From Promethearchaeia archaeon (GTDB lineage Archaea > Asgardarchaeota > Lokiarchaeia > Sigyniarchaeales > SOKP01): 23,510 nucleotides of DNA. Where the stretch lies: positions 1 through 23,510 of the forward strand of contig JAWOCD010000037.1 of assembly GCA_046483985.1 (NCBI GenBank). The letters are read 5' to 3'. The notes beneath the pieces were generated by a model. The model ran no database searches, was not told the DNA's origin, and was given only the letters and a program-made list of their open reading frames with translations. Positions 319 through 17,572 of this stretch are shown here, one piece after another (the first letter of the stretch is position 1; every line of letters starts with the position of its first letter). The position numbers and the translations under genes are program-made.

Positions 319-2256
319 CTATACGTTTCTTACCCAAAGAGGTCCAACCCATGCGACATCATCTCCCCGCGGAATCAATTCCCGATTATAGGAGTCAAAG
401 ATGCCATCGTAATAACTTGACCCTTCGGTAAAGACCTTTATATAGTAAAATGTTTCTCCATTCGTACTTAATTCATCCGCCTCGTCGACTCCAATATCCG
501 CCTCGTCGTGTATATAATACTCTCCGTCTCTTTTATTCTCTTCGGGGTCGATATCTCTGTAATCCCAGTAACTGAGTCCTTCAAGGGGGTCGGTATCTAC
601 CCATGAGCCATGGAATATCTTTTTATCATTACTAAAATCTAATTCCTTCCATACTTCATTATTCCGAATAATTTGGATTTTCTTTAAGGTATTGGCATCT
701 CCCCCGCCAGCGGCGACATCCAGTTCAATTAACCGATTCACGGAGTTATCCTCAACGGAAATAATTGAATTACTTTCCCCAATTCGAGTTCCATTAATTG
801 AGAAATTAACATACGGCCGGGAGGTCCCTTTCGTTGCATAACACGCCCTTTTCCACATGGCATCAAAAATGTCTCCTCTTTCCAGAGAGGGGGCAAACAC
901 TCCAATTAATCCATTTTGCTGAAATTGATGGCATCTGAACATGTGATTGGGAAACGCTGTATATGAGAGCGGCGCTTGCCATAGATGCCGCGCTTCAGTA
1001 TGGGACAGGCTATGCCCTATATGTCCATCGTGGGAATCGCCCGAAGCCATAAAACCCAGGTGATATCCCATTGAAAGGGCATCTCTAATATGATATCCCG
1101 GCTCATCGGTTTCCATTAATTGGGGGGTGTCTGTCCCGCCCATGAGAGGATAATTGTTGCCTTGTTCTGTGCTCATTTCACTTGATCCGTGGACACTATA
1201 CATTTCCACTAACCTGGTAATTTCCGGATCAAAATAGGACCAGTCTGTTTTCATTCCCATCATGGTATGAGGGGGATGATGGGCGATGGTCATTACTTTC
1301 CGCTCCTCCTTTTCCGCCATCCAATTTTTTAGGGCTTCATTCAATAATTTTTCGTTGGTATACTCTTGTTCCGCCCCGCTAAAAAATGGCACTTCTGAGG
1401 TACGGGAATAAATTACTCTATCTCCCAAAGTGTTTCCACTTCCTAAATAATTCCCTCTCCATTCATATGCTTGTAATGTTACAAAGTTATCTTTTCCGTT
1501 CCACTGCTCCACCACCGATTTTGTGTGTTCCCAATTGACTTTCCATCCCAATGGAGAAACCAATGCATTAACGAAATGGTCGTGGGTCGTAATCGAGGCA
1601 AAATCCAAGCATGCTACATTCTTTGCGTAGTAAAGAACCGTATCCAAGTTACCGCTTCCGTCACATTTTGAGGTGTGCCCGTGAATGTCTCCCCAGAGTA
1701 AATAATCCTCTGGCTTCTCTTCATGGACCACGATTGGATTGCTATAAGCTTTCATCTCATTATCCTTATCTTCTGCAACCAAATAATGGATACCGGGTTC
1801 AGTAAACTGGACGGAAAATGTTTTCATGCCTCCATCTCCCCACGGAAAACGATAGGCTTCAACCATTCCTTGAGAAAACGAACTCGGTTTGAATTTATAG
1901 CTTTTCCTTGAAAAATTAACGTTTGTACTTACTAAAGTTCCGTTTGATCCTGCTTTTTCCTTAACGGCACTAAACTCGACACTTCCAGAATATCCGCATG
2001 ATAATCGCTCGCAATAATCCCAACATTCCACGGTGAAGTCTTCCGATTCTCCTTGCTGAACAATTGAAGGACCAAAAACCCGTAATTGGGCCGGATCATT
2101 CTTGACCAGAGGTCTCCAATTAAAATTAACAGGATCTATAGTCCAAAAATAGAAACCGACAAAGAGAAAAATAAATATGAAAATCCATTTGACCGATTTT
2201 TTCCGGGGCCCGTCCTTTAAGACTTGGGGAGTCCGCAGTATGTTTTTCTTCTTCAT
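319..2256 (-). CDS. Membrane-anchored DUF3604 / CehA-McbA-like PHP-fold metallohydrolase
   Basis: 645 aa. N-terminal TM (WIFIFIFLFVGFYFW), a beta-rich domain, then PHP metal motifs WGDIHGHT..DG, LDFASITTHDH, AHHP, EMYSVHG and GFMASGDSHDGH, ending in AWVGPLWV. Confidence 0.75.
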   Translation of the reverse strand: MKKKNILRTPQVLKDGPRKKSVKWIFIFIFLFVGFYFWTIDPVNFNWRPLVKNDPAQLRVFGPSIVQQGESEDFTVECWDYCERLSCGYSGSVEFSAVKEKAGSNGTLVSTNVNFSRKSYKFKPSSFSQGMVEAYRFPWGDGGMKTFSVQFTEPGIHYLVAEDKDNEMKAYSNPIVVHEEKPEDYLLWGDIHGHTSKCDGSGNLDTVLYYAKNVACLDFASITTHDHFVNALVSPLGWKVNWEHTKSVVEQWNGKDNFVTLQAYEWRGNYLGSGNTLGDRVIYSRTSEVPFFSGAEQEYTNEKLLNEALKNWMAEKEERKVMTIAHHPPHTMMGMKTDWSYFDPEITRLVEMYSVHGSSEMSTEQGNNYPLMGGTDTPQLMETDEPGYHIRDALSMGYHLGFMASGDSHDGHIGHSLSHTEARHLWQAPLSYTAFPNHMFRCHQFQQNGLIGVFAPSLERGDIFDAMWKRACYATKGTSRPYVNFSINGTRIGESNSIISVEDNSVNRLIELDVAAGGGDANTLKKIQIIRNNEVWKELDFSNDKKIFHGSWVDTDPLEGLSYWDYRDIDPEENKRDGEYYIHDEADIGVDEADELSTNGETFYYIKVFTEGSSYYDGIFDSYNRELIPRGDDVAWVGPLWVRNV

Positions 2257-2301
2257 ATTTTTCTAAATAAATTACTTAACCAATTAATTTAACGTCTTCA
2301 A

Positions 2302-2934
2302 TCAGCCTATGATGGCTAAATTCAAAATATTTATGGCTTGAATAAAATATAAAATCAGCGTAATTGCTCCAAAAATTAAGGCTCGCCAATCCTTCTTCAT
2401 AAGGAGATATATACCTCCTACTAAAGAGAATATATTCAAAAATGGGACCAATACGAAAGCTAATGAAAATATAGTGTGAATGGTATAAGGGTATTCATTA
2501 TTCTCGATATCATAAAACAGATCTTTGACATCCGAATGGAAGTGTCTCCAATTATTGACGATGTTGAGGAGATAAATTTCCTTTTTCTCGCTCTCAAACG
2601 CTTCCTGATTAAATTTTAAAGATTTATTTAGCTCTTTGAGCAAGAATCCGAACTTTCTCAATGATTTCTCCGTCTCTTCGGTATAAAATTTAAATTTCTT
2701 CCCGTATAAGTCGAAATTGGATTTAATGTTCTTTATCTCTTGTAGTATTGAATCGATTTTCGGGGTAAACGTGTTCTGAAACTCGGAGCCTTCTATGGAT
2801 TCCGTTATCGTTACGAAAAGATTTTTAACCTCGGCGATATTTTGATGAACGAATTCAATAAATTCGGGATTGATTTGGTTCCTAAAGAGATTTAGGGGGT
2901 TCAATTTTGATTTTGTACTCTCTGAAATTGTCAT
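2302..2934 (-). CDS. Hypothetical membrane protein (helical N-terminal region, two C-terminal TM segments)
   Basis: 210-aa ORF with a charged helical N-terminus and hydrophobic IFSLAFVLVPFLNIFSLVGGIYLLM and ALIFGAITLILYFIQAINILNLAIIG segments. Confidence 0.7.
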   Translation of the reverse strand: MTISESTKSKLNPLNLFRNQINPEFIEFVHQNIAEVKNLFVTITESIEGSEFQNTFTPKIDSILQEIKNIKSNFDLYGKKFKFYTEETEKSLRKFGFLLKELNKSLKFNQEAFESEKKEIYLLNIVNNWRHFHSDVKDLFYDIENNEYPYTIHTIFSLAFVLVPFLNIFSLVGGIYLLMKKDWRALIFGAITLILYFIQAINILNLAIIG

Positions 2935-3030
2935 AAAACCGTACTCTTTCTTGTGAAGTTTAATCTTATCTTATAATTTCTATAAATACGAACTTCATAA
3001 TATAATTAATTATTGTCCTTATCATTCCGC

Positions 3031-3411
3031 TTACATTAAAATATAGTCAACGATTAAATTAATGACCCCGCCTAGGGGAATTAACAACACGTGAGTGACA
3101 ATGAAAGCCCGTTTGATATATTTGGGGATGATCTCATTATCGCTGAACTTTATAAAGTAAACGGCTATCAGTTCCAACACCGCCATGATAAATTCCATAA
3201 TTAGGATGATGTCAAAAAAGAGCATGATATTAAAGGAAAAAATTGCCGTTTTTTGGAGCGGTTGCACTAATACTTTCAAAAGGGGTCTTAGAAAGAGAAA
3301 ATAGCCAATTCCGATTGTTAAGTCAAAAAGCCCGTCGAGAATCAGAATGATTGTGGATCTTTCTTTTTTATAGACAACGGGAGGGTCATCGTAATTTTTC
3401 CTTTCTGTCAT
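3031..3411 (-). CDS. Hypothetical 3-TM membrane protein, copy A
   Basis: 126 aa with three hydrophobic segments. 109/126 aa identical to 6502..6882 (hand count), mostly conservative changes, which supports real coding status. Confidence 0.85.
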   Translation of the reverse strand: MTERKNYDDPPVVYKKERSTIILILDGLFDLTIGIGYFLFLRPLLKVLVQPLQKTAIFSFNIMLFFDIILIMEFIMAVLELIAVYFIKFSDNEIIPKYIKRAFIVTHVLLIPLGGVINLIVDYILM

Positions 3412-3497
3412 TTCTCTTAGGAACCAATAAAATTATTAAACCATTAAAAACAAAGCACTCATCCTTAATTAATAATAACAACCATTTTAACTTGATT
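3031..3497. repeat. Diverged direct repeat (126-aa gene + about 85 bp of upstream sequence), copy A; partner about 6502..6977
   Basis: Beyond the gene, taaaccattaa...actcatcctta..taa.aata...ttgatt is shared by both copies; similarity then stops. Confidence 0.85.
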
Positions 3498-3530
3498 ATC
3501 TATTAAGAACCTCTCGAGCCGAGAGCAAAG

Positions 3531-3568
3531 TGCAATAACAAAAATGACCCGTCTGCAATAACAAAAAT
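3531..3568 (+). repeat. Two exact 15-bp direct repeats TGCAATAACAAAAAT (23-bp period), possible protein-binding sites
   Basis: Copies at 3531-3545 and 3554-3568, about 30 bp upstream of the 3600 ATG. Confidence 0.8.
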
Positions 3569-3599
3569 ATTAAAATATGCGGCGCTATATTATCTGTAT

Positions 3600-3854
3600 A
3601 TGAGAACTTACAAAACGAAGACAAAGACCATCGTAAAGACGGAACGGAAGGTCGATACGGTCTCTTGCAACAAATGCGGGAAGGTGCTGGAACGCGGGAG
3701 CGCGCACGGAAACGATTACGGGAAACTCAGGATCGATTACGGATTTTATAGTATGTTCGATGGTGACATGTTTATGGGAGACCTGTGCGACGAGTGCGGG
3801 AAAGAGCTGATCGAAGAATACAACCTCAAGCGATTCAAAGGCGTGCGCATGTAA
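3600..3854 (+). CDS. Small Zn-ribbon hypothetical protein of virus/plasmid type
   Basis: 84 aa with CNKCG ... DLCDECG. GC is much higher than the flanks (35/60 at 3661-3720). Confidence 0.7.
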   Translation: MRTYKTKTKTIVKTERKVDTVSCNKCGKVLERGSAHGNDYGKLRIDYGFYSMFDGDMFMGDLCDECGKELIEEYNLKRFKGVRM

Positions 3855-4088
3855 GACGCTGTACAAATGTCAAACCCATATGCCAAACCCGCAAAACCTT
3901 GATTGACGGTTTGAGAACCAACCTGTATTACCTAAGGTACTGATCACGCATTAGCGAATATGAATCTCACGCCGTTAGCCGTGAGTAGTTTAATCCATAA
4001 TTTAATAACTAATATTAAATAAATATATAGTAAATTCTTTTGATCGCCTATGGTGGGAAAAAAGAATACTAAACGGCCTGATACTTGA

Positions 4089-5549
4089 ATGAAAAAACTA
4101 ATAATTCTCTGTTTTGATGGCTTAAGTTGGAACATCATTAATAAATTAAATAAAGCAGGAATAACAAACAACATAGAGCGGCTCATGGAATTGGGAAGTT
4201 ATGGCTCAATGAAAGCGGATTTCCCGCTAATTTCCCCTCGAATTTGGACGTCTATACATACGGGATACAAAGCAAATAAACATGGCATCTTAGATTTTTA
4301 TTTTACCCCTCGAGATATAAAGAAACCGTCAATGTGGGACTACTTACATAAAGAAGGATTTAGAGTGGGAGTTTATCGACCTTTGATAATCCCAAAAACA
4401 ATTAAAAATACGCCCTTTTTTATTCCCGGCTTTCTTTCGCCTCAAATTAACGCAAGTCCCCAAAAATACCAATTTATAAAAGATTTGGACGAACAGCTGA
4501 GAGCAGATTCGAAAGGGCTCTCGGTTTTAATCACGCTTTTCAAAACGTTCTTAAATTTATTCAAGTCGAATTTCTCGTTGAGCAAACTTCTAAAGATCCT
4601 CTTGTTCACGGTTAAGTATATCTCCTCGCGCCATAAAAAATCTAGTTTGTTTTACCTGAAGGAAATAGAGTTCTTAATTCATTCAAGCTTTTATTTGAAT
4701 TTAATCAAACGACATCGCCCCGAATTTTCGATTTTTTATGAAAACTCATGTGATAGTATCTCACATCAGTTCTGGAACGAATGGAGGGATAAAACAGATT
4801 TATCTTTTGCGATTCCACGGATATATAGTGAAATAGATAAATATATCGGAAAGGTATACGAGTTTGCGATGAAAAATGGCTATTCTCTTCTGATTCTCTC
4901 TGACCACGGATTTAGTGTAAATAAAGACTTAAAAAAGCACGGATATCTAAGAACTATTAAGATTACGGGATTATTATCCGCTTTAGACTTAGAGGACCAT
5001 TTATTCGGCATTCAGTTGGATAATTTCGCCTACTTCAGAAAAAAACCTACCTCCCAGAAATCATCGGAATTTTTTAGAGACATGTTTGAAGCTGTTAAAT
5101 TCAAAGATAAGCAATTTTTTTCCGTTGAGAAGTACAAGGGAAATTTCATAATAACGGTCAATATTGAAGTTGTCCCGTTGCTAAAGCCTGAAGGGATTAT
5201 TAAAATCTCTGACAAGGAAGAAGTGACCGTGGAGGAAATAATTGAATTTAACTCAAACCGATTTGGGGCTCATAGCAGTAAAAATGGAGTTTTTATGTTA
5301 TGCGGCGAAAACATTAGAAATAAAAAAATTAAAGAGGTGAAACCTTATGATATCTTGCCCACTCTTTTTGCCCATCTCGGGGTTCCTATCCCCAAACAAT
5401 TGGATGGGAAGGTGGTCAAAAACATATTTAGTAAGAAACCAAAACCGCAATATTATGACTATACGGAAGATGCGGAAGAAGGGATTGAGGGGAAAACGAA
5501 ACGTGAAAAAGAAACCATTAAGAAACATCTTAAATCCTTGGAAATCTAA
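4089..5549 (+). CDS. Alkaline phosphatase superfamily protein (type I phosphodiesterase / nucleotide pyrophosphatase-like)
   Basis: 486 aa. Motifs IILCFDG, nucleophile region ISPRIWTSIHTG..HGI.DF, DSISHQFW, LILSDHGF, GAH...GVF and DILPT.....G...P...DG. Confidence 0.85.
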   Translation: MKKLIILCFDGLSWNIINKLNKAGITNNIERLMELGSYGSMKADFPLISPRIWTSIHTGYKANKHGILDFYFTPRDIKKPSMWDYLHKEGFRVGVYRPLIIPKTIKNTPFFIPGFLSPQINASPQKYQFIKDLDEQLRADSKGLSVLITLFKTFLNLFKSNFSLSKLLKILLFTVKYISSRHKKSSLFYLKEIEFLIHSSFYLNLIKRHRPEFSIFYENSCDSISHQFWNEWRDKTDLSFAIPRIYSEIDKYIGKVYEFAMKNGYSLLILSDHGFSVNKDLKKHGYLRTIKITGLLSALDLEDHLFGIQLDNFAYFRKKPTSQKSSEFFRDMFEAVKFKDKQFFSVEKYKGNFIITVNIEVVPLLKPEGIIKISDKEEVTVEEIIEFNSNRFGAHSSKNGVFMLCGENIRNKKIKEVKPYDILPTLFAHLGVPIPKQLDGKVVKNIFSKKPKPQYYDYTEDAEEGIEGKTKREKETIKKHLKSLEI

Positions 5550-5648
5550 AAATTTAATCTCATTCTTATAATCCATAATCCCAGACGGTTTTATTAGTGA
5601 AAAAGGTCGGAACACTTAGAGTACGGTATCAAGGAAAAGGTTCTTTGT

Positions 5649-5730
5649 AAGATTATTAAGGATTGTTTGAATTCTGATAAATTTGAATTTATGCTCATCC
5701 ATGGTCGCCGACACGTAGGAAGACAGAGAT
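5649..5730 (+). pseudogene. Relic of the N-terminus (Walker A) of an archaeal ATPase_2-family ATPase
   Basis: KIIKDCLNSDKFEFMLIHGRRHVG. Adding one A after 5720 (GGA AG ACA GAG -> GGA AAG ACA GAG) restores GRRHVGKTE, matching the family motif GRRRVGKT. No in-frame start upstream of the relic. Confidence 0.65.
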
Positions 5731-5811
5731 CCATTTCCATTGGCTTGAACGATATGAACAGAGTTATTACAGAAATAGGATAAGCGATACTAAGAGATAC
5801 GAGAACAAAAA

Positions 5812-6478
5812 TTAAAGGGAATAGGAACCTGTTCCATACGTTTTATTGGTGAAAATGTATACGATTTCCTTTCCCTTCCCTTCTGCGGGCTTCTTGAGTT
5901 TTAATTGTACCGTAATCGGCTCTTCTTTCGTTCCTCGGGGAGTTTTTTCGATATTTTTGCCCTTATATTTCAGATTAACAGCGTCTTGATGGATATAAGT
6001 GTCATTTTGATCGCCCATAATGATCAAATCGTCCTTTTTCGTGATATATCCATCGTTCACCAGCACATCAGCCCACTTCGAATTGGGATCGTACTTTAGG
6101 ATTTTTCCCACCTGGATATAGCGATAATGAGATAAATTGTACGGATAGTTGTGCTGATGATCTTCCTCGGTCATACGCTTGAAATAGAACCCCGGCGTAA
6201 ACCCCCGATTATAAACCCGTTTTAGGTCGGTGACCCATCTTCCCACTTTAGTTTCATTAAATGTCCCCTCATAATACGCTTCAATCGCCTCTCTATAGGT
6301 TTTACTTACAATCTCAACGTAATGGGGATGACGCATTCGACCCTCAATTTTAAACGCGTCGATATTTGCCTCAATTAAGTCCGGGATATATGCGATTGTG
6401 CATAAATCACGGGAGTTCATAAATCGCACACCATCGTAGATGTATTCGTTATTCTCTTTATCCTTAACCCACCATCGT
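5812..6478 (-). pseudogene. 5'-truncated second copy of the U32-family gene (C-terminal 221 aa, frame intact)
   Basis: 197/221 aa identical to the C-terminal part of 8253..9515 (hand count). Nucleotide identity ends at caccatcgt (6478 vs 8919), just after the Cys motif, so the Fe-S ligands are missing. Confidence 0.85.
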
Positions 6479-6501
6479 GTCCTCTCACTACCCCCTACCA
6501 A

Positions 6502-6882
6502 TTACATTAAAATATAATCCACGATGAGATTGATAATCCCGCCTAAGGGAAGTAACAGGACGTGGGTGACCAAAAAAGCCCGTTTGATATATTTGGGAAT
6601 GATCTCGTTATCGCTGAACTTTATAAAATATACCGCCACCAATTCCAAGATTGCCATGATAAATTCCATGAATAACACGATGTCAAAAAAGAGCATGATG
6701 TTGAAGGTAAAAATCGCCGTCTCTTGGAGCGGCTGCACTAATACCGCCAAAAGCGGTCTGAGAAATAAAAAATAGCCTATACCAATTGACAAATCGAAGA
6801 GTCCGTCAAGAATCAGAATAATGGTGGATTGTTCCTTTTTATAGACAGCGGGCGGCTCATCGTAGGTTTTCTCTTCTTTCAT
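6502..6882 (-). CDS. Hypothetical 3-TM membrane protein, copy B
   Basis: 126 aa, same length as 3031..3411 and 109/126 aa identical to it. Confidence 0.85.
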   Translation of the reverse strand: MKEEKTYDEPPAVYKKEQSTIILILDGLFDLSIGIGYFLFLRPLLAVLVQPLQETAIFTFNIMLFFDIVLFMEFIMAILELVAVYFIKFSDNEIIPKYIKRAFLVTHVLLLPLGGIINLIVDYILM

Positions 6883-6994
6883 TTCCCTTTTGTGTTGTTA
6901 ATCCTTTTAAACTACTAAACCATTAATTGCTAGTAACTCATCCTTACTTAAGAATAGAAAGCATTGATAATTTGATTTTTCTTTGGCAAAATTT

Positions 6995-7027
6995 TTATTA
7001 TTTGAATAATAATTATTCAATTAATAA
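6995..7027. repeat. 33-bp AT-rich imperfect palindrome
   Basis: ttatta-t-ttgaataat-a-attattcaa-t-taataa, with perfect 9-bp inner arms at 7002-7010 and 7012-7020. Confidence 0.6.
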
Positions 7028-7041
7028 TAATTAAAATAATA

Positions 7042-7169
7042 ATCGGACGATAGTGGTGGAAGGATACCGAAATAGATTTAATTGGATTCAATCCGAATGT
7101 AAATGGCAAGATCACGTCAATGGACATTCAATTGCCGCAAAATTAATCGCAAAAGCATCAAAGAATTGA
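7042..7169 (+). pseudogene. Relic of a DUF234 (PD-(D/E)xK-like) C-terminal domain of an ATPase_2-DUF234 protein
   Basis: IGR*WWKDTEIDLIGFN (TAG 7051-7053, probably from TGG), then a frameshift to ECKWQDHVNGHSIAAKLIAKASK. This matches the family pattern GRWW...EID....ECKW. Confidence 0.7.
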
Positions 7170-7218
7170 ATTGATACGAGATGTCTAAAAACAGAGAGAG
7201 GTAAAAATAAATAATAAA

Positions 7219-8022
7219 ATGATATTAGGAAATAATTTTATTTTTCTACGATTACAAAAATCGGCATCAACGCATATTACAAAAATACTAGATAATTTAT
7301 TTAATGTTAGGAACTATGGGAAACATAATACATTAAATAAATTGACAGATAAGTATGTATTTGGTACTATTCGCAATCCTTATTCCTGGTATATATCACT
7401 ATGGGCAACTGGATGTGAATCATTTGAATTTATCTATAATGATATTAGATTTAATGAATTTAATAGGAGAAATTTAATACCAGAATATTGTAAAGATTTG
7501 AATGTACACAAAGTAAATAAGATAATTAAGAATTGTATTGCTTTAATTAAAGTAAAAAGGTTATGGAGATATTTATATTCTGATATTAATAATGAAAATT
7601 TATTTAGGAAATGGTTAAAATATATTTTTTCAATAAGAAAAGATATTCTATATGAATTAGATAGTGATATAAAAATCGGATTTTACACATATATTTATTC
7701 TAAATTATATTTATATAATTTTATAGAAAATATAAATAAAGTAAATTCAATAGAAGATTTAATTCGGTATGATAATTTTTATAATTTAATGGATTTTACC
7801 ATAAAAACTGAGAATTTAGAGAATGAATTAATATTATTTCTTAATGATATTACGAGTATTAATGATAAAGAAAAAGAATATATCTTATCTATGAAAAATA
7901 ATAAATCTAATACCACTAAACATAAACCCTATGAGGAATATTACGACGAAAAATCTATTAAATTAATAGAAGAATATGAATCATTTATTCTTAATAAATA
8001 TAATTATGTATTCGGTGATTAG
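7219..8022 (+). CDS. Sulfotransferase-family protein (Sulfotransfer_2-like)
   Basis: 267 aa. 5'-PSB-like FIFLRLQKSASTHI, 3'-PB-like FGTIRNPYSWYISLW, IKTENLE and C-terminal HKPYEEYYD.....I........Y.Y.F. Extremely AT-rich (4/60 GC at 7681-7740). Confidence 0.7.
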   Translation: MILGNNFIFLRLQKSASTHITKILDNLFNVRNYGKHNTLNKLTDKYVFGTIRNPYSWYISLWATGCESFEFIYNDIRFNEFNRRNLIPEYCKDLNVHKVNKIIKNCIALIKVKRLWRYLYSDINNENLFRKWLKYIFSIRKDILYELDSDIKIGFYTYIYSKLYLYNFIENINKVNSIEDLIRYDNFYNLMDFTIKTENLENELILFLNDITSINDKEKEYILSMKNNKSNTTKHKPYEEYYDEKSIKLIEEYESFILNKYNYVFGD

Positions 8023-8258
8023 ATGAAAGTGAATGATAAAGTTAATTTTGATAATATTTGGTTATAAGACCAGATACTATTGATGTATTTAGTAACTATA
8101 ATGATACTGAAGAATTGGAAATCATAATTAAAAATTTAGGTGAAGATAAGAGTAGAATTGCCATTTCAATTGATATACCTAAAGGTATAATAATTAAATA
8201 TGGTAAGTCTACTTATAAACATAAATATCATGATCTCCCATTATTCTCATTTTCATAA
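8023..8258 (+). pseudogene. Frameshifted, probably 3'-truncated hypothetical gene
   Basis: ATG at 8023 directly follows the sulfotransferase stop, with GGTGA upstream, and gives MKVNDKVNFDNIWL*. A second frame (8058..8258, VIRPDTID...) continues and ends at a TAA inside the last codon of the U32 gene. Confidence 0.45.
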
Positions 8259-9515
8259 GGAGTAAGACCCCGTCCCGTACGTCTTATTGGTGAAAATATA
8301 GACCGTTTCCTTTCCGTTTCCTTCGACTGGCTTCTGCAGTTTTAATTTAACCGTAATGGGATCGTCTTCTGTCCCTCGCGGGGTCTTTTCCGTCCGTTTT
8401 CCCTTATATTTCAAATCAATAGCGTCTTGATGGAGATAGGTGTCGTTTTGGTCGCCCATAATAATGAGATCATCCCCTTTCGTGAGGTATCCGTCGTTTA
8501 CCAGCACATCCGCCCATCCCGAATTGGGATTGTAGTGCGAGATATTTCCCACCTGGATATAACGATAATGGGATAAATTATACGGATAATTGTGCTGATG
8601 GTCTTCCTCGGTCATTCTCTTGAAGTAAAAGCCGGGCGTGAACCCTCGGTTATATACCCGTTTTAAGTCGGTGACCCACCGTCCCACCTTATTATCGGTA
8701 AACGTTCCCTCATAATAGGCTTCGATCGCCTCTCTGTAGGTTTTACTTACCACCTCAACGTAATGGGGGTGACGCATCCGCCCTTCGATCTTAAACGCGT
8801 CGATATTTGCCTCGATTAAATCGGGAATATATGCGATTGTGCAGAGATCCCGGGAGTTCATAAACCGCACGCCGTCGTAAATATACTCATTATTCTCTTT
8901 ATCCTTAACCCACCATCGTCTCCGACAAGGCTGGATACAGTTCCCCCGATTTGCCGATTTTTCCTCGCTTCCGCAGATATCTTGGGAGAAGTAGCACCTT
9001 CCGCTGACCGATGTACACATTGCCCCGTGAATGAAGGTTTCAATTTCCGCGGTGGTCATGTTCCGTTTTATCTCTTTAATCTTTTCAAGGGATAATTCTC
9101 TCGCAAGGATTAACCGTTCTGCCCCTAAATCTTGATAAAATCGTGCAGAAAGGGAGTTGGATATGTTGCATTGGGTGGACACGTGAAAGGGGATCCCTTT
9201 TTGCTTTGCCATCTGTATTACGGCAAGATCATGTGCTATGACCGCATCAACCTCCGCAGCATATGCTTCTGCAAGTATCCTCCGGATTTGGCTTAATTCG
9301 TCATCATACACCAAAATATTCGTCGCCAGGTAGGTTTTTAATCCGTGGTCATGGCAGTACTGGACAACCGGTTTTAACTCATCGAGGGCGAAATTTTCAG
9401 CCCGCATCCTCATGTTAAATTCCTTTATTCCGAAGTACACGGAATCTACATAGGATTTGCATGCCTTAATGGACTTCACATTCTTGGCGGGTGCGAGAAG
9501 TTCGACTTTTTTCAT
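8253..9515 (-). CDS. Peptidase U32 family protein (TrhP/RlhA-like Fe-S RNA hydroxylation family)
   Basis: 420 aa. ELLAPA, DSVYFG...FNMR.RA.NF, HVSTQ, LARELSL, E.FIHGAMC...SGRC...SANRG.C.QPCR and FKIEGRMR, plus a C-terminal beta-barrel region. Confidence 0.92.
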   Translation of the reverse strand: MKKVELLAPAKNVKSIKACKSYVDSVYFGIKEFNMRMRAENFALDELKPVVQYCHDHGLKTYLATNILVYDDELSQIRRILAEAYAAEVDAVIAHDLAVIQMAKQKGIPFHVSTQCNISNSLSARFYQDLGAERLILARELSLEKIKEIKRNMTTAEIETFIHGAMCTSVSGRCYFSQDICGSEEKSANRGNCIQPCRRRWWVKDKENNEYIYDGVRFMNSRDLCTIAYIPDLIEANIDAFKIEGRMRHPHYVEVVSKTYREAIEAYYEGTFTDNKVGRWVTDLKRVYNRGFTPGFYFKRMTEEDHQHNYPYNLSHYRYIQVGNISHYNPNSGWADVLVNDGYLTKGDDLIIMGDQNDTYLHQDAIDLKYKGKRTEKTPRGTEDDPITVKLKLQKPVEGNGKETVYIFTNKTYGTGSYSL

Positions 9516-9730
9516 AATACTCCGAAAACTTTTTTATATTAATGAGAGTTTTATATATAGATAAATTAAGACCTCTATTATTTATACTTCTTAAATGCAA
9601 GGTTTTTTTGATCTATTCTTTGAGTCAAAACCATAAATAAAATAAAATATTGCTTCATTTAAAGTTATTAAATCGAAATGTAACTGGAATAGGTCATATT
9701 TATAATCAATAGATTTTATTGGTGTGTAAG

Positions 9731-10189
9731 ATGAAAGGAGAAAGAGAACGGATATCAAAGGATGATTATTTTATGCAGCTGGCCGAGGTGGTGTCAAAAC
9801 GCTCGACATGTCTAAAGCGAAATGTGGGGGCCGTGTTAGTGAAAGGCGCGCATATCATCTCCACCGGCTATAACGGTGCGCCCTCCGGGTTCAAACATTG
9901 TACCCCCGAGAGCTGTGTGAGAAAAAATATTAAAAGCGGGGAGCGCCCGGAATTATGCAGAGGGGTGCATGCAGAGATCAATTGTATCATCCAAGCAGCA
10001 ATCCACGGGACATCCATCGAGGGCAATACCACCCTTTACTCCACCACATTTCCTTGCATGAATTGTCTCAAGCTTTTAATTAATTCGGGTATCAACCGTC
10101 TGGTTTATAAGGAGGGGTATAATATGGAGAACGCGATTAAGCAAGATCTCTTAAGAGAATCCGAGATTATCGTGCAGAAGTTCCCTTGA
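9731..10189 (+). CDS. dCMP deaminase family protein (ComEB-like)
   Basis: YFM.LA....RSTC..R.VGAVLV, TGYNG.P.G, HAEIN and PCMNC zinc motifs. ATG 9731 is preferred over TTG 9719 because GGTG precedes it. Confidence 0.9.
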   Translation: MKGERERISKDDYFMQLAEVVSKRSTCLKRNVGAVLVKGAHIISTGYNGAPSGFKHCTPESCVRKNIKSGERPELCRGVHAEINCIIQAAIHGTSIEGNTTLYSTTFPCMNCLKLLINSGINRLVYKEGYNMENAIKQDLLRESEIIVQKFP

Positions 10190-10220: not shown

Positions 10221-11324
10221 TTAATCTTCAGTAGAATCTTCCTTATGTTTATGCCTGTGCTGGGAATTATGAGAATGCTCATGAGTGTGAGTCAATTTTC
10301 TATGTTTATGGGTAACCGTTTTATTTTGAGTATTATTAGCATTATGCTCTTCTGAAATAGGTTCTATCGTCTGAAGGTGTTTATCTTTTTCGAGACGAAG
10401 TGAGTGAGTATGGACTATTTTGCCGTGCGAATGGAGGTGAGCATGGTGATCTGTGGTTATTAATAATACTCCAATGAAAGTTAGGAAAAAGATAAAATAT
10501 CCAGCGAACCCAATCGTTTCTTGTAAAAAAAAAGCTGATAAAAGGGCTGCAATAAACGGAGAAGTAGAGAAAAGAATACTCGTTTTTATAGTTCCAATTT
10601 TTTTCAAAGCAGAGATAAACAAAATTATAGAAAATGCAAAAGAAAAAAGGCCTATAAAAAACACGTAAATATAGTTAGGAGGCGATAAAATAATCGGAAT
10701 TCCAAGCAGAAGTGAAAAGAGTAAGGAAGTTAGTCCTCCAAATATGCCTTTTATTGAAGTGATTTGAGCTGCTGATTTTTCACCAAGGGTTTGCGTAATG
10801 TTATTGTCTATTGCCCAAAAAAAACACCCTAATAGTAAAAAAATTACCCCCGGATTCAATAAGAGAGAAACCTTAACTATTTGAAAATCAATTGACCATA
10901 ATAACAAACAAATAATTACTAAAATAATTCCTATATCCCCTCTTTTACCTAACCGCTCATTAAATATTAAAGCTGCCAGAAGAATTGTAAAGATAACTTC
11001 AAAATTAAGGAATAAAGAAGTTTGAAAGGCGGTGCTGAAAAATAAACCGTATAATATAAAAAGTGGTGCCAATATACTCCCCGTCAGAATTATTATTAAC
11101 AATTTTGGTATATCTTGAACCTCCACCTGTGCTTGGACTTTTTGCACCTTAAAAAAAGCGGGTACCAATAAGAGCCCCGAAAGAAAATAAGTCCACCCAG
11201 AAAGAACCAGAGGTGTGATTTCTTCCAACAAAATTTTATTCAACGGGGTAGAAATTGCATATAGGAGTGCTGAGAGAAATGCGAAAAGGTACCCTAAGTT
11301 AAATTTTCGGTTTTCAAAGTGCAT
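10221..11324 (-). CDS. EamA/DMT family transporter with His-rich C-terminal tail
   Basis: About 10 TM segments in two EamA repeats (SLFLNFE...T...A....ER, WAIDNN.T, P.IAALLS....QE) and a His-rich tail. ATG 11324; alternative TTG start 11339. Confidence 0.85.
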   Translation of the reverse strand: MHFENRKFNLGYLFAFLSALLYAISTPLNKILLEEITPLVLSGWTYFLSGLLLVPAFFKVQKVQAQVEVQDIPKLLIIILTGSILAPLFILYGLFFSTAFQTSLFLNFEVIFTILLAALIFNERLGKRGDIGIILVIICLLLWSIDFQIVKVSLLLNPGVIFLLLGCFFWAIDNNITQTLGEKSAAQITSIKGIFGGLTSLLFSLLLGIPIILSPPNYIYVFFIGLFSFAFSIILFISALKKIGTIKTSILFSTSPFIAALLSAFFLQETIGFAGYFIFFLTFIGVLLITTDHHAHLHSHGKIVHTHSLRLEKDKHLQTIEPISEEHNANNTQNKTVTHKHRKLTHTHEHSHNSQHRHKHKEDSTED

Positions 11325-11508
11325 CAAATTACATAACAAAACAGCGATTAATAAATCTCATTATTAGAAATTAAAAATAGAAAAAATGAGTACTGAGCGT
11401 AAAAACTGTTATCCATTTAAACATTAGGGACAATCGTAAAATCTATTAAAAATGCAAAATTATTTAATCTCAAAATATTGAAAATTTGAAACGTGTGAAC
11501 TTAAGCAA

Positions 11509-14954: not shown

Positions 14955-17186
14955 TTATTTCATTACTTCGAGGAAGCTTTTTAGCTCATCAATGAGTTTG
15001 GAACTTTTTTTAAGCTCCTTTTCGAGCAAATGTTTATTATCTCGCTCCGCCATGAGTTTCTCGAAGATTTCTTTATCTTTTTTGCTGTAATCTTTCATGA
15101 GATAAATCTGCTCTTCCTTTTTCTCAAGCTTTTCCTCCAAATTTCTAATTTTGGTTCTCAATCTATCGACAATTTGATTTAAAGATACCAAGTTATCTTT
15201 CTCGTCGAGCGTGTCCAGATAATAAACCTTCAAATTATCAAGGATATTCACATCGCATATCGGACATTTCTTTTGATTTGTTAACCAAAATTTCATGCAG
15301 TCCAGATGGAAGTAATGACCGTTCCCGCAGTCGCAAATTTTGCTGCCTTTTTTAAATTGTTTAAAACAGATGATGCATCCTTCAGAGGAGGGTTTTTTCT
15401 CATAGATCTTCAATTTTTGCTCGAGAAAATTGAGCTTGTTGATATCTTCTTCATAGGAGAGATACTTATCAAACGGGAAATTGATTTCCTCAAAAGTCGA
15501 TTCCAACTTGCTCATTTCATTCTCCAGTTTTTTCTTGGTTTGGAGGACACGGTTTTTATTTAGTTTAGGCAGTTCATAGGTTTCTTCGGATGCTGCGGTA
15601 TCCCCGACGATTGCTTCTTTCGTCCCATATTTCTTCTTAGTGTAGCGCTTTTTGTCAATGTTCACTTGCCCCGTGATTTCTTGCCGTTCAAATAGCTTTC
15701 TGAAGCAACTTATCAAGATGTCCTCGGAGATATTATATTTTTTCTCAAATAATGAAAAGGGAATACTGGCGCCCGTAGAAGAGTTGATATAATTTTTAAT
15801 TTCTTCTTGAACCCGTGAGGTCAGATCGTGAATTTGCTTATTGACCCTTTCAGCTTTTTTTTCTAAATTTCCTTTTTCATAATGTTTCGCCGCTAATTGA
15901 TAATTTTCTATCACCGTTGCTATATCATCCGAATCCAAGTTTAATCTGGCGATTTTTTGGTATGTATCTCCCATCTTTTCGAACTCCTGCTTCTTGCTAT
16001 AGAATTCCAACGCTTTATTGGCTAATATTTCCGCTTTATGGAGATTATCGTTATCCCTCGACAGATCACTCAATTGGAGGTATAGATCTCCGGCGTGCAG
16101 AAACTCTCCGGCATTTTTATGCTGGATTGCGGCCTTCTCGAGCGCGATTTCTGCCGCTTCGGTATTTCCTTTCACGAGATATTTTTTGGCTTGTATGCTT
16201 AATCCCTTGGCGGGTAATCCAATAAATTCAATAGTCATAATGAGGGACTTTAGGTAGGGGTCTTTTTTAGTCTTGTAAATATCTTGCCCAATTTCATAAA
16301 TCTTATTCACGGTCTTACTGAGATTACGCCCTCGATTTTCTAAAAGAATCCCCGAATACAGTTCCTCTCCGGATACTTTTCCGAATCGATTTACGAATAC
16401 GATTTCGCTTTTTTCAAAAATATCAATAACAAATACGAGATCCCCGAATTCAAATGTATCCAATTCACTTTTTGCATGACGAATACTTGACAAAATCCCG
16501 TGTTGGAATCCCTCTCCGGTATTGTTGATACTCACAACCTCTCGTTCACTATCCTTAAGAAAACACGTCGCCTCGTTAATCTTTAGGTTACTTAATTTTT
16601 TACTTATATGAGACCCATAGGAATCGATGTTTCCGCTTTCTAGTGCTAAGTTTGCTTTTTTAGCTTTATAGGATTGCAGTTCCACTTTTCCCAAGCTATT
16701 TAAATTTTTGGCGACAACTCTCAGGAATTTGTCACTGATATCAGAGATTTTATATTTTTCTTTTTTCTCGGTCTCGAATAGAGATTTAAACTCTTTATCC
16801 TTGCTCTCTTCTATTTTAATAAGCAAATTCTTTATTTTTTGCATTTTTTGATATAATAACTTCCCGTTCGGGGGCCACCCTTTAATATCAATCAAAATAA
16901 ATAGATTGATGACCTTTAAATTAATAAGAACCACGGCCACTTTTTTAAAAAAGAAGACTTGAATCAGCGGCTCGCTGATGTTGATGTTCTGCGAAAACTC
17001 GCGGAAAATATAATACAATGCCTTCGTTTTTGAACCTAAGATTGCCGGTTTTATTTTATATTTTCTCGATTTAATAGCGAATGATAAGGGCATTCCTTCG
17101 GCGTCGATAATTGCTAGATTCATAAAGTGAGGATTGGTACGGATAAGATCCACTAAAATTTTATCAAAATCTCGTTTTTTTACCAT
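14955..17186 (-). CDS. Multidomain putative E3 ligase: tandem Roadblock-like domains, TPR/SNAP-like repeats + winged helix (PCI-like), RING-H2, coiled coil
   Basis: 743 aa. RING-H2 at aa 604-644: CIIC-x12-C-x3-H-x2-H-x2-C-x3-W-x6-CPIC (nt 15255-15377). The other domains are read from residue patterns and are less certain. Confidence 0.75.
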   Translation of the reverse strand: MVKKRDFDKILVDLIRTNPHFMNLAIIDAEGMPLSFAIKSRKYKIKPAILGSKTKALYYIFREFSQNINISEPLIQVFFFKKVAVVLINLKVINLFILIDIKGWPPNGKLLYQKMQKIKNLLIKIEESKDKEFKSLFETEKKEKYKISDISDKFLRVVAKNLNSLGKVELQSYKAKKANLALESGNIDSYGSHISKKLSNLKINEATCFLKDSEREVVSINNTGEGFQHGILSSIRHAKSELDTFEFGDLVFVIDIFEKSEIVFVNRFGKVSGEELYSGILLENRGRNLSKTVNKIYEIGQDIYKTKKDPYLKSLIMTIEFIGLPAKGLSIQAKKYLVKGNTEAAEIALEKAAIQHKNAGEFLHAGDLYLQLSDLSRDNDNLHKAEILANKALEFYSKKQEFEKMGDTYQKIARLNLDSDDIATVIENYQLAAKHYEKGNLEKKAERVNKQIHDLTSRVQEEIKNYINSSTGASIPFSLFEKKYNISEDILISCFRKLFERQEITGQVNIDKKRYTKKKYGTKEAIVGDTAASEETYELPKLNKNRVLQTKKKLENEMSKLESTFEEINFPFDKYLSYEEDINKLNFLEQKLKIYEKKPSSEGCIICFKQFKKGSKICDCGNGHYFHLDCMKFWLTNQKKCPICDVNILDNLKVYYLDTLDEKDNLVSLNQIVDRLRTKIRNLEEKLEKKEEQIYLMKDYSKKDKEIFEKLMAERDNKHLLEKELKKSSKLIDELKSFLEVMK

Positions 17187-17254: not shown

Positions 17255-17572
17255 ACTTAATCCTAATATACTTTTATTCAAAATAAAGATATTACATGAA
17301 ATAAAATACGAACTGCTAAAAAAGAATTACTAATTGCCTTTCTTGGGATAAAATCAAGAATACCATGAGAAGTATGCTTACAAATAAAAAAACAAAAAAA
17401 CAAAAAAATGAAAAAATCAGAACTTAATCCTAATATATTTTTATTCACAATAAAAGATATTACATAAAATACGACGTAGTAAAAAAGAATTACTAATTAC
17501 CCCTCTTGCCTCAGACCTGCGAAAAAAAGGAGTAGAACCTTATCATCCTAACGAAAATGAAAAAAGTAGAAA
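17255..17572. repeat. Intergenic diverged tandem duplication, two units (167 bp and about 150 bp)
   Basis: acttaatcctaatata..tttattca.aata..agatattacat..aaatacga...taaaaaagaattactaatt.cc..tcttg at 17255-17345 and 17422-17508. Shared tail aaaatgaaaaaa..agaa at about 17405-17422 and 17554-17571. Confidence 0.85.
17381..17416 (-). terminator. Clustered oligo-T tracts, candidate archaeal intrinsic terminator
   Basis: The minus strand has T6-CA-T7-G-T7-G-T7 about 160 bp downstream of the giant surface-protein gene. Confidence 0.4.

Follow-up and report, generated by a model that had tools for sequence, protein, structure and literature searches.

Two long-diverged copies of a tightly linked U32/126-aa gene pair lie side by side on a Promethearchaeia contig

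Some integrative elements carry a 3′ end that replaces that of the gene they target, and SSV-type elements have one of their own genes split when they integrate. Homology-facilitated illegitimate recombination (HFIR) has been described for Acinetobacter, Streptococcus pneumoniae, and Pseudomonas stutzeri in work cited in PMC5361080, and for T6SS and Rhs loci it has been proposed that a new module is anchored upstream and that the old 3′ part, together with its partner gene, is displaced downstream (PMC5361080). In Asgard archaea, and above all in Lokiarchaeia, tandem duplications of gene blocks that evolve under purifying selection are reported to be common (PMC13247210). Here we describe a Promethearchaeia locus that shares features with each of these systems.

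The window that we analyzed is the whole of one contig (23,510 nt). In this clade the usual gene string is aspartokinase (AK), dCMP deaminase and then, on the opposite strand, U32, the 126-aa gene, the 210-aa gene, and DUF3604, and the U32-126-210-645 order is identical in the relatives L057, L060, and L063-L068. In the window, a full U32 gene is followed by a U32 3′ fragment, each with a 126-aa gene after it (Table 1). The genes flanking the tandem are single-copy in the genome bin: no second copy of the AK, dCMP deaminase, 210-aa, or 645-aa gene was found there. Among the relatives examined, none has two copies of the U32/126 pair.

Table 1. Features of the tandem locus and its surroundings (positions in the window).
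Feature	Position	Strand	Remarks
Conserved downstream genes	319-2934	-	210-aa membrane protein (2302-2934) and 645-aa DUF3604/CehA-like metallohydrolase (319-2256); Pfam, NCBIfam
126-aa membrane protein gene, copy A	3031-3411	-	followed by conserved spacer, 210-aa and DUF3604 genes, as in relatives
Ancestral spacer right half and presumed promoter, copy A	3412-3497	-	aligns to 6883-6977 and to L057 spacer from about position 73
Cargo A	3498-5740	+	zinc-ribbon gene, AlkP-superfamily gene, N-terminal ATPase_2 relic
Ancestral U32/126 spacer left half, unit A only	5741-5811	-	aligns to positions 1-69 of the 136-nt spacer of L057
Truncated U32 3′ half, U32-A (codons ~197-420)	5812-6482	-	open frame 5812-6501
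Junction filler, 126-B stop codon to start of U32 homology	6483-6501	-	unique in genome
126-aa membrane protein gene, copy B	6502-6882	-	87% aa identity to copy A
Ancestral spacer right half and presumed 126-aa promoter, copy B	6883-6977	-	aligns to 3412-3497 and partly to L057 spacer
Cargo B	6978-8252	+	sulfotransferase-like gene, C-terminal DUF234-type ATPase relic, AT-rich palindromic stretch
Full-length U32-family gene, U32-B (420 aa)	8253-9515	-	PF01136; 3′ half 8253-8923 pairs with the fragment
dCMP deaminase gene	9719-10189	+	PF00383; divergent from U32; part of GC3-rich patch 6502-10189
EamA-type transporter gene	10221-11339	-	PF00892 E=6.7e-37; between dCMP deaminase and aspartokinase, a place where relatives lack it

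The tandem structure is real and recent, its anatomy in the assembly and selection on both copies being shown here, along with a recent truncation, a vacant interval in relatives, and a compositional patch with two edges. Alignment of 3031-3497 with 6502-6977 gave 377 matches, 90 mismatches, and 9 gapped positions (81% nt identity), with all gaps in noncoding sequence upstream of the 126-aa gene, while 5818-6482 and 8259-8923 aligned ungapped with 551 of 665 positions identical (83%). Both alignments bear out the repeat structure of the preliminary description, and the counts of differing residues given there (17/126 and 24/221) were obtained again (25/223 for U32 when two junction codons are included). 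The truncated U32 copy, said to be free of stops and frameshifts, indeed has an open frame of 229 codons. It matches the Peptidase_U32 profile at positions 137-230 of 233 only, whereas U32-B covers positions 2-230 (Pfam, E=1.5e-77) and has TrhP as its best NCBIfam match, below the cut-off. Over 8253-8923 the two copies are 89% identical in amino acids and 83% in nucleotides. U32-B orthologues (64-85% identity) occur in nearly all genomes of the family. The 126-aa protein, with ~3-4 TM helices predicted from hydropathy, matched no Pfam family; its homologues (55-78% identity) are always encoded directly downstream of U32.

The preliminary description placed an illegitimate join at 6478/6479; the join is non-homologous, as proposed, but the U32 homology may reach 6482-6488, so that the filler between its end and the 126-B stop codon (6502-6504) is 13-19 nt long. 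This stop codon is in frame with the ORF of the U32 fragment, and a 30-nt perfect match (6449-6478 = 8890-8919) ends 4 nt from the end of homology. The filler (6483-6501) resembles neither U32 nor the 126-210 spacer that is conserved in relatives, and a fuzzy search of the bin found it once. The 31-mer spanning the junction was absent from JGI metagenome contigs, and exact sequence look-ups found no independent contig with either allele or the junction. As previously noted, integrase and transposase domains were absent from all ORFs scanned, and we found no tRNA and no significant flanking direct or inverted repeats; a candidate repeat at the spacer edges was not significant (p=0.3-0.95). The locus thus showed no integrase gene, att direct repeats, tRNA, or other defined target such as would mark it as a site-specific integrative element.

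Both copies had been proposed to have evolved under selection and to have been joined recently, and both points held when examined. The dN/dS ratio was 0.061 for the U32 half and 0.09 for the 126-aa gene, indicating strong purifying selection for nearly all of the divergence, and dS was ~1 for both gene pairs (1.14 and 0.95). Derived amino-acid changes were equally numerous in the U32 fragment and the full copy (9 vs 9), the maximum-likelihood branch lengths were nearly equal (0.068 vs 0.074), and almost none of the derived changes of the fragment fall in its half TIM-barrel part, which we take to be unable to fold on its own. Since the fragment shows no excess of changes and its frame is still open, the truncation is recent. 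In simulations of neutral decay, the probability of an open frame had dropped to 0.12 by 0.05 substitutions per site and to 0.02 by 0.1, so the truncation spans at most a few percent of the divergence time. The expectation that the A and B copies would group with different taxa failed: they are each other's closest relatives in both gene trees (97/95 and 89/92).

The two cargos are unrelated to each other, as had been stated for all DNA between the paired genes, but they carry complementary relics of one ATPase_2/DUF234-type gene. Cargo A contains a zinc-ribbon gene (3600-3854, 84 aa, CxxC...CxxC, GC3 0.67), an alkaline-phosphatase-superfamily gene (4089-5549, 486 aa, PF01663 E=3.4e-22) whose nearest homologues are 41% identical and all from Asgard archaea, and an N-terminal ATPase_2 relic (~5640-5745) with a degenerate Walker A motif; the two best six-frame hits of this relic fall in the Walker A regions of two ATPase_2 genes, which are the only intact ones in the bin. 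Cargo B contains the palindromic stretch (6990-7042), a frameshifted C-terminal relic (7043-7184) that aligns in nucleotides to the C45 ATPase gene (aa 352-403; score 81 vs a shuffle maximum of 67), and the sulfotransferase-like gene (7219-8022, 267 aa, GC 20%, GC3 0.146), whose product has 708 homologues, with Sulfotransfer_2 matched by 8 of 30. Cargo B was not found in 100 genomes of the family.

The proposal of a hypervariable cargo slot was not supported by the relatives, whose interval is invariant, the very outcome that the preliminary description had named as counting against it. In six related lineages (~15 contigs), U32 and the 126-aa gene are 9-136 bp apart with no gene between them, and cargo in this interval is confined to the two copies of this contig. 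The spacer remnant of ~70 nt in unit A (5741-5811) aligned to the L057 spacer with a score of 18, which 0 of 2000 shuffles reached (p<0.0005), and cargo A, leaving these 70 nt of ancestral spacer in place, is thus a clean insertion. The similarity of the two units does end at the U32 stop codon, as described earlier, but only because the ancestral spacer is missing from unit B. In the best explanation, both cargos inserted earlier into the U32/126 spacer of the A/B clade, which is otherwise empty as a rule, and do not testify to a general hotspot.

The two units also differ in base composition. In compositional tests that were chosen after the data were seen and that cover few genes, third positions that differ between A and B in the two gene pairs had GC in B rather than A at a ratio of 66:35 (p=0.003), first and second positions at 32:19, and all codon positions pooled at 98:54; FYMINK residues numbered 23 in A and 10 in B. 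That the B unit is GC-richer in both genes points to evolution in different genomic backgrounds. Against L060, the dCMP deaminase gene had a third-position shift of the same type (42:16, p=0.0009), and the GC3-rich patch of dCMP deaminase, U32-B, and 126-B together gave 183:95. The left flank (AK and the C-terminus of a 411-aa gene) showed no B-type shift (125:121; p=0.0005 vs the patch), and the right flank gave 241:200 (p=0.003 vs the patch). Since the shift is absent on both flanks, it marks an internal patch and not a one-sided switch; a change of composition persisting from the junction to the contig end was not seen on the far-side flank.

Taken together, these results suggest that the tandem probably arose when a few kilobases from a sister lineage were added beside the resident copy. 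The specific reading that we favor, tentatively and at somewhat less than an even chance, is that DNA of a GC-richer sister lineage entered the genome, with an anchor on its upstream side and an illegitimate joint at 6483-6501 in the resident U32 gene. A segment of ~3.7-5 kb would have been taken up from this lineage B, carrying dCMP deaminase, the full U32 gene, the sulfotransferase-like insert, and its own 126-aa gene. Upstream, the segment would have recombined with the homologous region of the resident, and its downstream end, cut 13-19 nt past the 126-B stop codon, would have been joined without homology at about codon 196 of U32-A, a process of the HFIR type or an additive integration. 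The resident U32-A 3′ half, spacer, cargo A, and 126-A would then have been shifted downstream as a displaced remnant. The EamA-type transporter gene may be the left edge of the imported patch: the gap between dCMP deaminase and AK is 225 bp in L057 and L060, which have no such gene, and upstream of AK conservation is limited to the last 75 nt. We infer which way the transfer went, which lineage gave the DNA, where the upstream crossover lay, and that cells carry the junction.

The combination of homologous recombination at one end and an illegitimate join at the other, proposed in the preliminary description, is thus still the best single model, and the fact that the GC3-rich patch has a boundary on either side speaks for it, but the separate taxa from which the two copies were expected to come are not borne out. 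With A and B as sisters in both trees, the donor lineage is hypothetical and unsampled. Recombination across 18% divergence is expected to be inefficient. Further observations count against the import: the complementary ATPase relics around the central block need extra lineage-specific deletions, the bin has blunt archaeal/bacterial joins plus contigs of a second related population, and neither allele nor the junction was seen on any independent contig.

The last two observations bear on an alternative that we consider unlikely, an assembly or library chimera in which two co-occurring sister populations, each with a single U32-cargo-126 locus, were joined at 6483-6501. In the same bin, AT-rich archaeal DNA is bluntly joined to DNA of 64-70% GC on C89 (~15845, where both ORFs are broken and there is a 7-nt repeat, TGTCGAT) and on C91 (~4200). 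In addition, topoisomerase VI A and B are among 25 kb of the bin that occur twice, at 74-79% identity, which means that the bin also holds a second related population; contamination is 4.8%, the window is an entire contig of 23.5 kb, and neither allele was found anywhere else. A single mis-join, however, would make one whole side B-like, and the patch is bounded on both sides. The junction also lies at a non-homologous position, which a switch at a shared k-mer cannot create, so that a de Bruijn path requires real reads across it. Furthermore, the AK, dCMP deaminase, 210-aa, and 645-aa genes have no second copy in the bin, and the distance to the co-binned population (pS 0.71-0.76) exceeds that between A and B (pS 0.54-0.585).

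Quite improbable, in our view, is an old tandem duplication of U32-126 within one genome, with both copies kept by selection and with a recent deletion of the region between the units and of the 5′ half of the downstream U32. The sister relationship of A and B is what a lineage-specific duplication predicts, the dS values of the two gene pairs are alike, tandem blocks with this mode of selection are reported to be common among Asgard archaea (PMC13247210), and the bin has further tandem paralogues, for example at C66 87670-93116. In one genome, though, a shared mutational bias is expected, yet B is GC-richer; the single-copy dCMP deaminase gene has the B-type shift and AK does not; and the relatives hold only one copy of the pair.

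The ATPase relics suggest yet another history, which we regard as very improbable: one four-gene island (zinc ribbon, AlkP-family gene, ATPase_2/DUF234 gene, and sulfotransferase-like gene) would have inserted between U32 and the 126-aa gene, and a circularized, cargo-less U32′-spacer-126 fragment of another lineage would have replaced the middle of the ATPase gene. The N- and C-terminal relics do lie in plus-strand gene order around the block 5741-6977, the same C45 gene is the best hit of both, the bin has only two intact family members, and the block is a circularly permuted version of the locus as it stands, without cargo, in all relatives. This history nevertheless pairs the U32 fragment with 126-B, whereupon the GC shift vanishes (45:56, vs 66:35 under the A/B labeling); the circle must open at the same spacer position as the island edge; and GC3 differs widely among the cargo genes (0.146, 0.39, and 0.67), unlike what one island would show.

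A standing, integrase-free replacement hotspot at U32/126, with cargo turnover by recombination in the flanking genes, is highly improbable. The same spacer holds different cargo in the two units, their right edges coincide (3497 and 6977) and share ~23 nt missing from L057, and no integrase, tRNA, or repeats were found; on the other side, the interval is empty in six related lineages, and at the family level the genes after U32 vary genus by genus in an ordinary way. Selection limits breakpoints to a spacer of ~100 nt, from the U32 stop codon to the 126 promoter, so the coinciding edges are not very improbable. A further reading, with a bare outside chance, would make the U32/126 spacer of this Promethearchaeia clade a specific attachment point for a small integrase-less element whose ATPase_2/DUF234 gene was split on integration, much as the integrase gene of SSV-type elements is, the tandem being a caught intermediate of allele or cargo exchange between sister Asgard lineages.

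To our knowledge, recombination mechanisms are essentially unstudied in Asgard archaea because almost nothing has been cultured. If the junction is real, the locus would be tangible evidence that sister lineages of Asgard archaea exchange DNA, here with an additive and partly illegitimate integration as the outcome, and would show that two diverged alleles of a conserved gene pair can coexist for a short time in a single genome. Should the junction be an artefact, the locus still serves as a caution: given the blunt chimeric joins in the bin, "tandem alleles" in metagenome-assembled genomes need read-level proof.

The locus is an instance of known recombination outcomes and reveals no new kind of system. 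It resembles integrative elements in that an intact gene copy has a displaced 3′ fragment downstream of it and, like SSV-type integration, shows an element gene (here ATPase_2/DUF234) as separate N- and C-terminal relics beside chromosomal flanks; unlike these, it has no integrase, att repeats, or tRNA, its duplicated part is 670 bp at 83% identity instead of a short identical core, and what is split is an ATPase gene and not a recombinase gene. With Asgard tandem block duplications it shares paralogous blocks that lie next to each other, evolve under purifying selection in both copies, and are sisters in trees, but here one copy is truncated mid-domain, base composition differs between the copies, and dN/dS (0.06-0.09) is far under the median of 0.367 reported for tandem paralogues (PMC13247210). 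As in Rhs, CDI, and T6SS effector-immunity loci, so far as they are portrayed in PMC5361080, a displaced 3′ fragment of a gene, with the partner gene, comes after the full-length copy, and the incoming module would be anchored in the conserved upstream part; here, however, conserved orthologous U32 3′ halves (89% aa identity) take the place of polymorphic toxin tips, the partner gene (126 aa) is conserved where those loci have a variable immunity gene, there is a single displaced unit, and conflict systems are not in evidence. HFIR, as cited in the same paper, likewise has one homologous anchor and one non-homologous joint, adds foreign DNA beside the anchor, and needs neither a recombinase gene nor an att site. 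The present locus differs in being inferred from one contig of an uncultured Asgard archaeon, in the ~18% divergence between donor and recipient, and in that the added DNA is homologous to the displaced part, which gives a partial tandem.

The two-unit tandem of the preliminary description was reproduced on contig C73, which at 23,510 bp is the whole window and belongs to genome bin G000 (4.06 Mb, 128 contigs, 97% complete, 4.8% contamination). By the names that its close homologues carry, it is placed in Promethearchaeia, Asgard archaea of the Lokiarchaeia type. Between units A and B, the 126-aa gene segments align with 377 matches, 90 mismatches, and 9 gapped positions, the gaps being confined to the region upstream of the gene, and the U32 segments are identical at 551 of 665 positions without a gap. 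The encoded proteins differ at 17 of 126 residues for the 126-aa protein and at 24 of 221 for the U32 halves. The truncated U32-A copy matches just the final 40% of Pfam's U32 profile and lies in an open frame of 229 codons that comes directly after the stop codon of 126-B, in the same frame; the 13 to 19 nt from this stop to the first U32-like codons are unmatched elsewhere in the bin. No tRNA, integrase, or transposase was found at the locus, and no convincing inverted or direct repeat and no significant terminal repeat was found at the cargo ends. By eye, the spacer edges suggested a target-site duplication or att core, which was rejected as nonsignificant against shuffles.

Positions of the features discussed, in the window unless a contig or locus is named
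Feature	Position	Strand
210-aa and 645-aa (DUF3604) genes	319-2934	
126-aa/210-aa spacer	2935-3030	
126-A	3031-3411	-
126-aa gene repeat, units A and B	3031-3497; 6502-6977	
Right spacer half, unit A	from ~3474	
Right cargo edges, A and B	3497; 6977	
Cargo A	3498-5740	
Left spacer half, unit A	5741-5811	
Central block between ATPase relics	5741-6977	
U32-A	5812-6482	-
U32-A open frame	5812-6501	-
U32 repeat, units A and B	5818-6482; 8259-8923	
30-nt perfect match	6449-6478	
Junction	6483-6501	
126-B	6502-6882	-
126-B stop codon	6502-6504	-
B-type patch	roughly 6502-10189	
Cargo B	6978-8252	
U32-B	8253-9515	-
dCMP deaminase gene	9719-10189	
EamA-type transporter gene	10221-11339	
Intergenic direct repeats	17255-17508	
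306-nt repeats	22624-23510	
Archaeal/high-GC abutment	C89 ~15826-15850; C91 1-4200	
Blunt joins	C89 ~15845; C91 ~4200	
Colinear ~25 kb	C29:16198-41004; C91:4308-32916	
Matches of C127 genes	C66:56702-58858; C126:65772-67589	
Prismane/CO-dehydrogenase tandem (L085)	C66:87670-93116	
Split U32 call	L065 1091-2353	

The U32/126 interval had also been described as a hypervariable cargo slot, a claim that comparison with relatives does not support. In six lineages on about 15 contigs (loci L057/58, L060-62, L063-68, L007, L082, and L083), the gene order is aspartokinase, dCMP deaminase, then U32, 126-aa, 210-aa, and DUF3604, and the U32-126 gap is invariably gene-free, at 9 to 136 bp. Because it is empty in all six, the interval is not a general cargo slot. 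At the family level, the genes after U32 vary by genus, as in ordinary synteny decay. The 126-aa protein, a small membrane protein without a Pfam family, is rare (1 of 40 related genomes searched), and its gene, wherever present, comes immediately downstream of U32. Between the 126-aa and 210-aa genes, the spacer contains an AT-rich motif (TTAATTATATTAT ... TTTATAGAAATTATAAG) that is strongly conserved at the same place in L057, L060, and L063, among lineages with saturated synonymous sites, and that probably serves the 210-aa gene as its promoter. In L065 (ERZ10759765), the U32 gene is called in two pieces of 57 and 353 aa, which suggests a frameshift or sequencing error.

Unit A keeps the ancestral spacer, its left half aligning to positions 1 to 69 of the L057 spacer, which is 136 nt long (none of 2000 shuffles scored as high), and its right half aligning from position ~73 onward. 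Because both halves flank cargo A, this cargo is a clean insertion into the ancestral U32/126 spacer. Unit B is without the left half, and cargo B begins immediately past the stop codon. The right cargo edges coincide, with ~23 nt common to both units and absent from L057. The genes of cargo A code for a zinc-ribbon protein and for a member of the alkaline phosphatase superfamily (PF01663) whose nearest homologues, all Asgard, are 41% identical, and the very AT-rich gene of cargo B (GC3 0.146) belongs to a family of ~270-aa proteins, 8 of 30 members of which match Sulfotransfer_2. When an intact island was sought in 100 family genomes, the AlkP-family gene had no close homologue (at most 37% identity) and the sulfotransferase-like gene had none.

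By the Nei-Gojobori method, the two U32 halves are separated by a dS of 1.14 with a dN/dS of 0.061; for the pair of 126-aa genes, dS is 0.95 and dN/dS is 0.09. Polarization with eight outgroups assigned nine derived changes to A and nine to B, and derived changes were almost absent from the TIM barrel part that the U32-A fragment retains. Maximum-likelihood trees placed A and B as sisters (97/95 and 89/92) on equal branches (0.068 and 0.074), and under simulated neutral decay the chance of an intact frame was P = 0.12 after 0.05 substitutions per site, falling to P = 0.02 after 0.1. Given the low dN/dS, the even split of derived changes, the equal branches, and the simulated decay, the fragment was part of a working full-length gene until the last few percent of divergence. 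These data support the earlier proposal that the copies evolved separately and were joined recently, and they exclude an old duplication that produced the fragment at once. Pseudogene decay as the source of the fragment's lower GC3 was rejected, as the fragment shows no excess of amino acid change.

The units differ in composition as well, in tests that were picked after seeing the data and cover few genes. At third positions where the copies differ, unit B has the higher GC in each gene (44:23 and 22:12; p = 0.003 when pooled), as it has at first plus second positions (32:19), and FYMINK residues at differing sites number 23 in A versus 10 in B; regrouping the U32 fragment with 126-B abolishes the shift (45:56). 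Relative to L060, GC3 was gained in the dCMP deaminase gene (42:16), both U32-B halves (48:33 and 64:31), and 126-B (29:15); aspartokinase (96:95) and the end of the 411-aa gene (29:26) showed no such gain, nor did the U32-A fragment, 126-A, or the 210-aa and 645-aa genes. The patch differed from the left flank (p = 0.0005) and the right flank (p = 0.003), and flank versus flank gave p = 0.34. Because the gain lies within dCMP deaminase, U32-B, and 126-B and on neither flank, the B-type segment is, on compositional grounds, an internal patch. On its left side, between dCMP deaminase and aspartokinase, the EamA-type transporter gene, with a His-rich tail, occupies a position where L057 and L060 have just 225 bp, and is a third lineage-specific insertion in the neighborhood.

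We tentatively hypothesize that a few kilobases were taken in from a GC-richer sister lineage. The imported segment would have been anchored upstream by homology and joined illegitimately, at the junction, into the resident U32, displacing the resident U32 3' half, cargo A, and 126-A. Had a Campbell-type crossover taken place within the 30-nt perfect match, dCMP deaminase and the U32 5' half should be A-type, and GC3 does not favor this. No donor can be named because the nearest relatives of either allele are just 78% (126-aa protein), 85% (U32), and 41% (AlkP-family protein) identical; exact-protein look-ups with 126-A and 126-B gave no record, and the junction-spanning 31-mer was absent from JGI metagenome contigs.

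That the junction is instead an assembly or library chimera is unlikely, since the patch has a boundary on either side, the junction does not fall at shared sequence, and each flanking gene occurs once in the bin, but the same bin does contain blunt joins of archaeal to 64-70% GC DNA in contigs C89 and C91 and carries 25 kb, including topoisomerase VI A and B, twice at 74 to 79% identity. Both joins, where the archaeal DNA is AT-rich, are near contig ends, and at the C89 join each of the two ORFs is interrupted within its protein and there are two copies of TGTCGAT. These contigs are probably chimeric, which affects trust in any odd junction of the bin. The ~25 kb is colinear between C29 and C91 at 70 to 79% nucleotide identity (pS 0.71-0.76 for the topoisomerase VI subunits), and because of this duplication G000 seems to include a second, related population. 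Contig C127 (7.7 kb), with two adjacent genes 93 to 94% identical (dS ~0.2) to genes on two large contigs, C66 and C126, could be a variant from a close strain, a mobile element, or a further chimera.

An old duplication of the full unit followed by a recent deletion would agree with the sister relationship of A and B and with the tandem duplication frequency reported for Asgard archaea (PMC13247210), but the compositional difference between A and B does not fit, and we regard this history as improbable.

Other repeats were seen in the bin. The Prismane/CO-dehydrogenase-family genes on C66 (783 and 795 aa; 86% nucleotide and 92% amino acid identity) are an ordinary complete tandem duplication and make a useful comparison. 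In the window, tandem 306-nt (102-aa) repeats of 84 to 86% identity occupy the 5' part of a 1944-aa surface-protein gene and extend past the contig end, and two direct-repeat pairs, of 33 nt (94%) and 50 nt (82%) with a spacing of 163 to 167 nt, lie between the RING-finger gene and the giant surface-protein gene.

Two short ATPase_2/DUF234 relics, for which a Pfam search gave no match, were established only by comparing six-frame translations and nucleotide sequence with the ATPase genes of the bin itself: an N-terminal one, whose Walker A is degenerate, at the end of cargo A nearest U32, and a frameshifted C-terminal one at the 126-proximal end of cargo B. Both best match one gene on C45, the bin having just two intact family members, and they stand in gene order on the + strand, flanking the central block. 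A history in which an ATPase gene ancestrally occupied the slot and then decayed differentially was rejected, since the orientation of the relics is the reverse of what it requires. A nested insertion of a circularized, cargo-less U32'-126 fragment into the ATPase gene of one island would account for the relics but disagrees with the compositional evidence and with the unevenness of GC3 among the cargo genes, and is likewise improbable.

The tandem structure is either an artefact or an example of recombination outcomes that are already known. The import that we tentatively favor would have the outcome proposed for Rhs C-terminal displacement and for effector-immunity arrays of the T6SS (PMC5361080).
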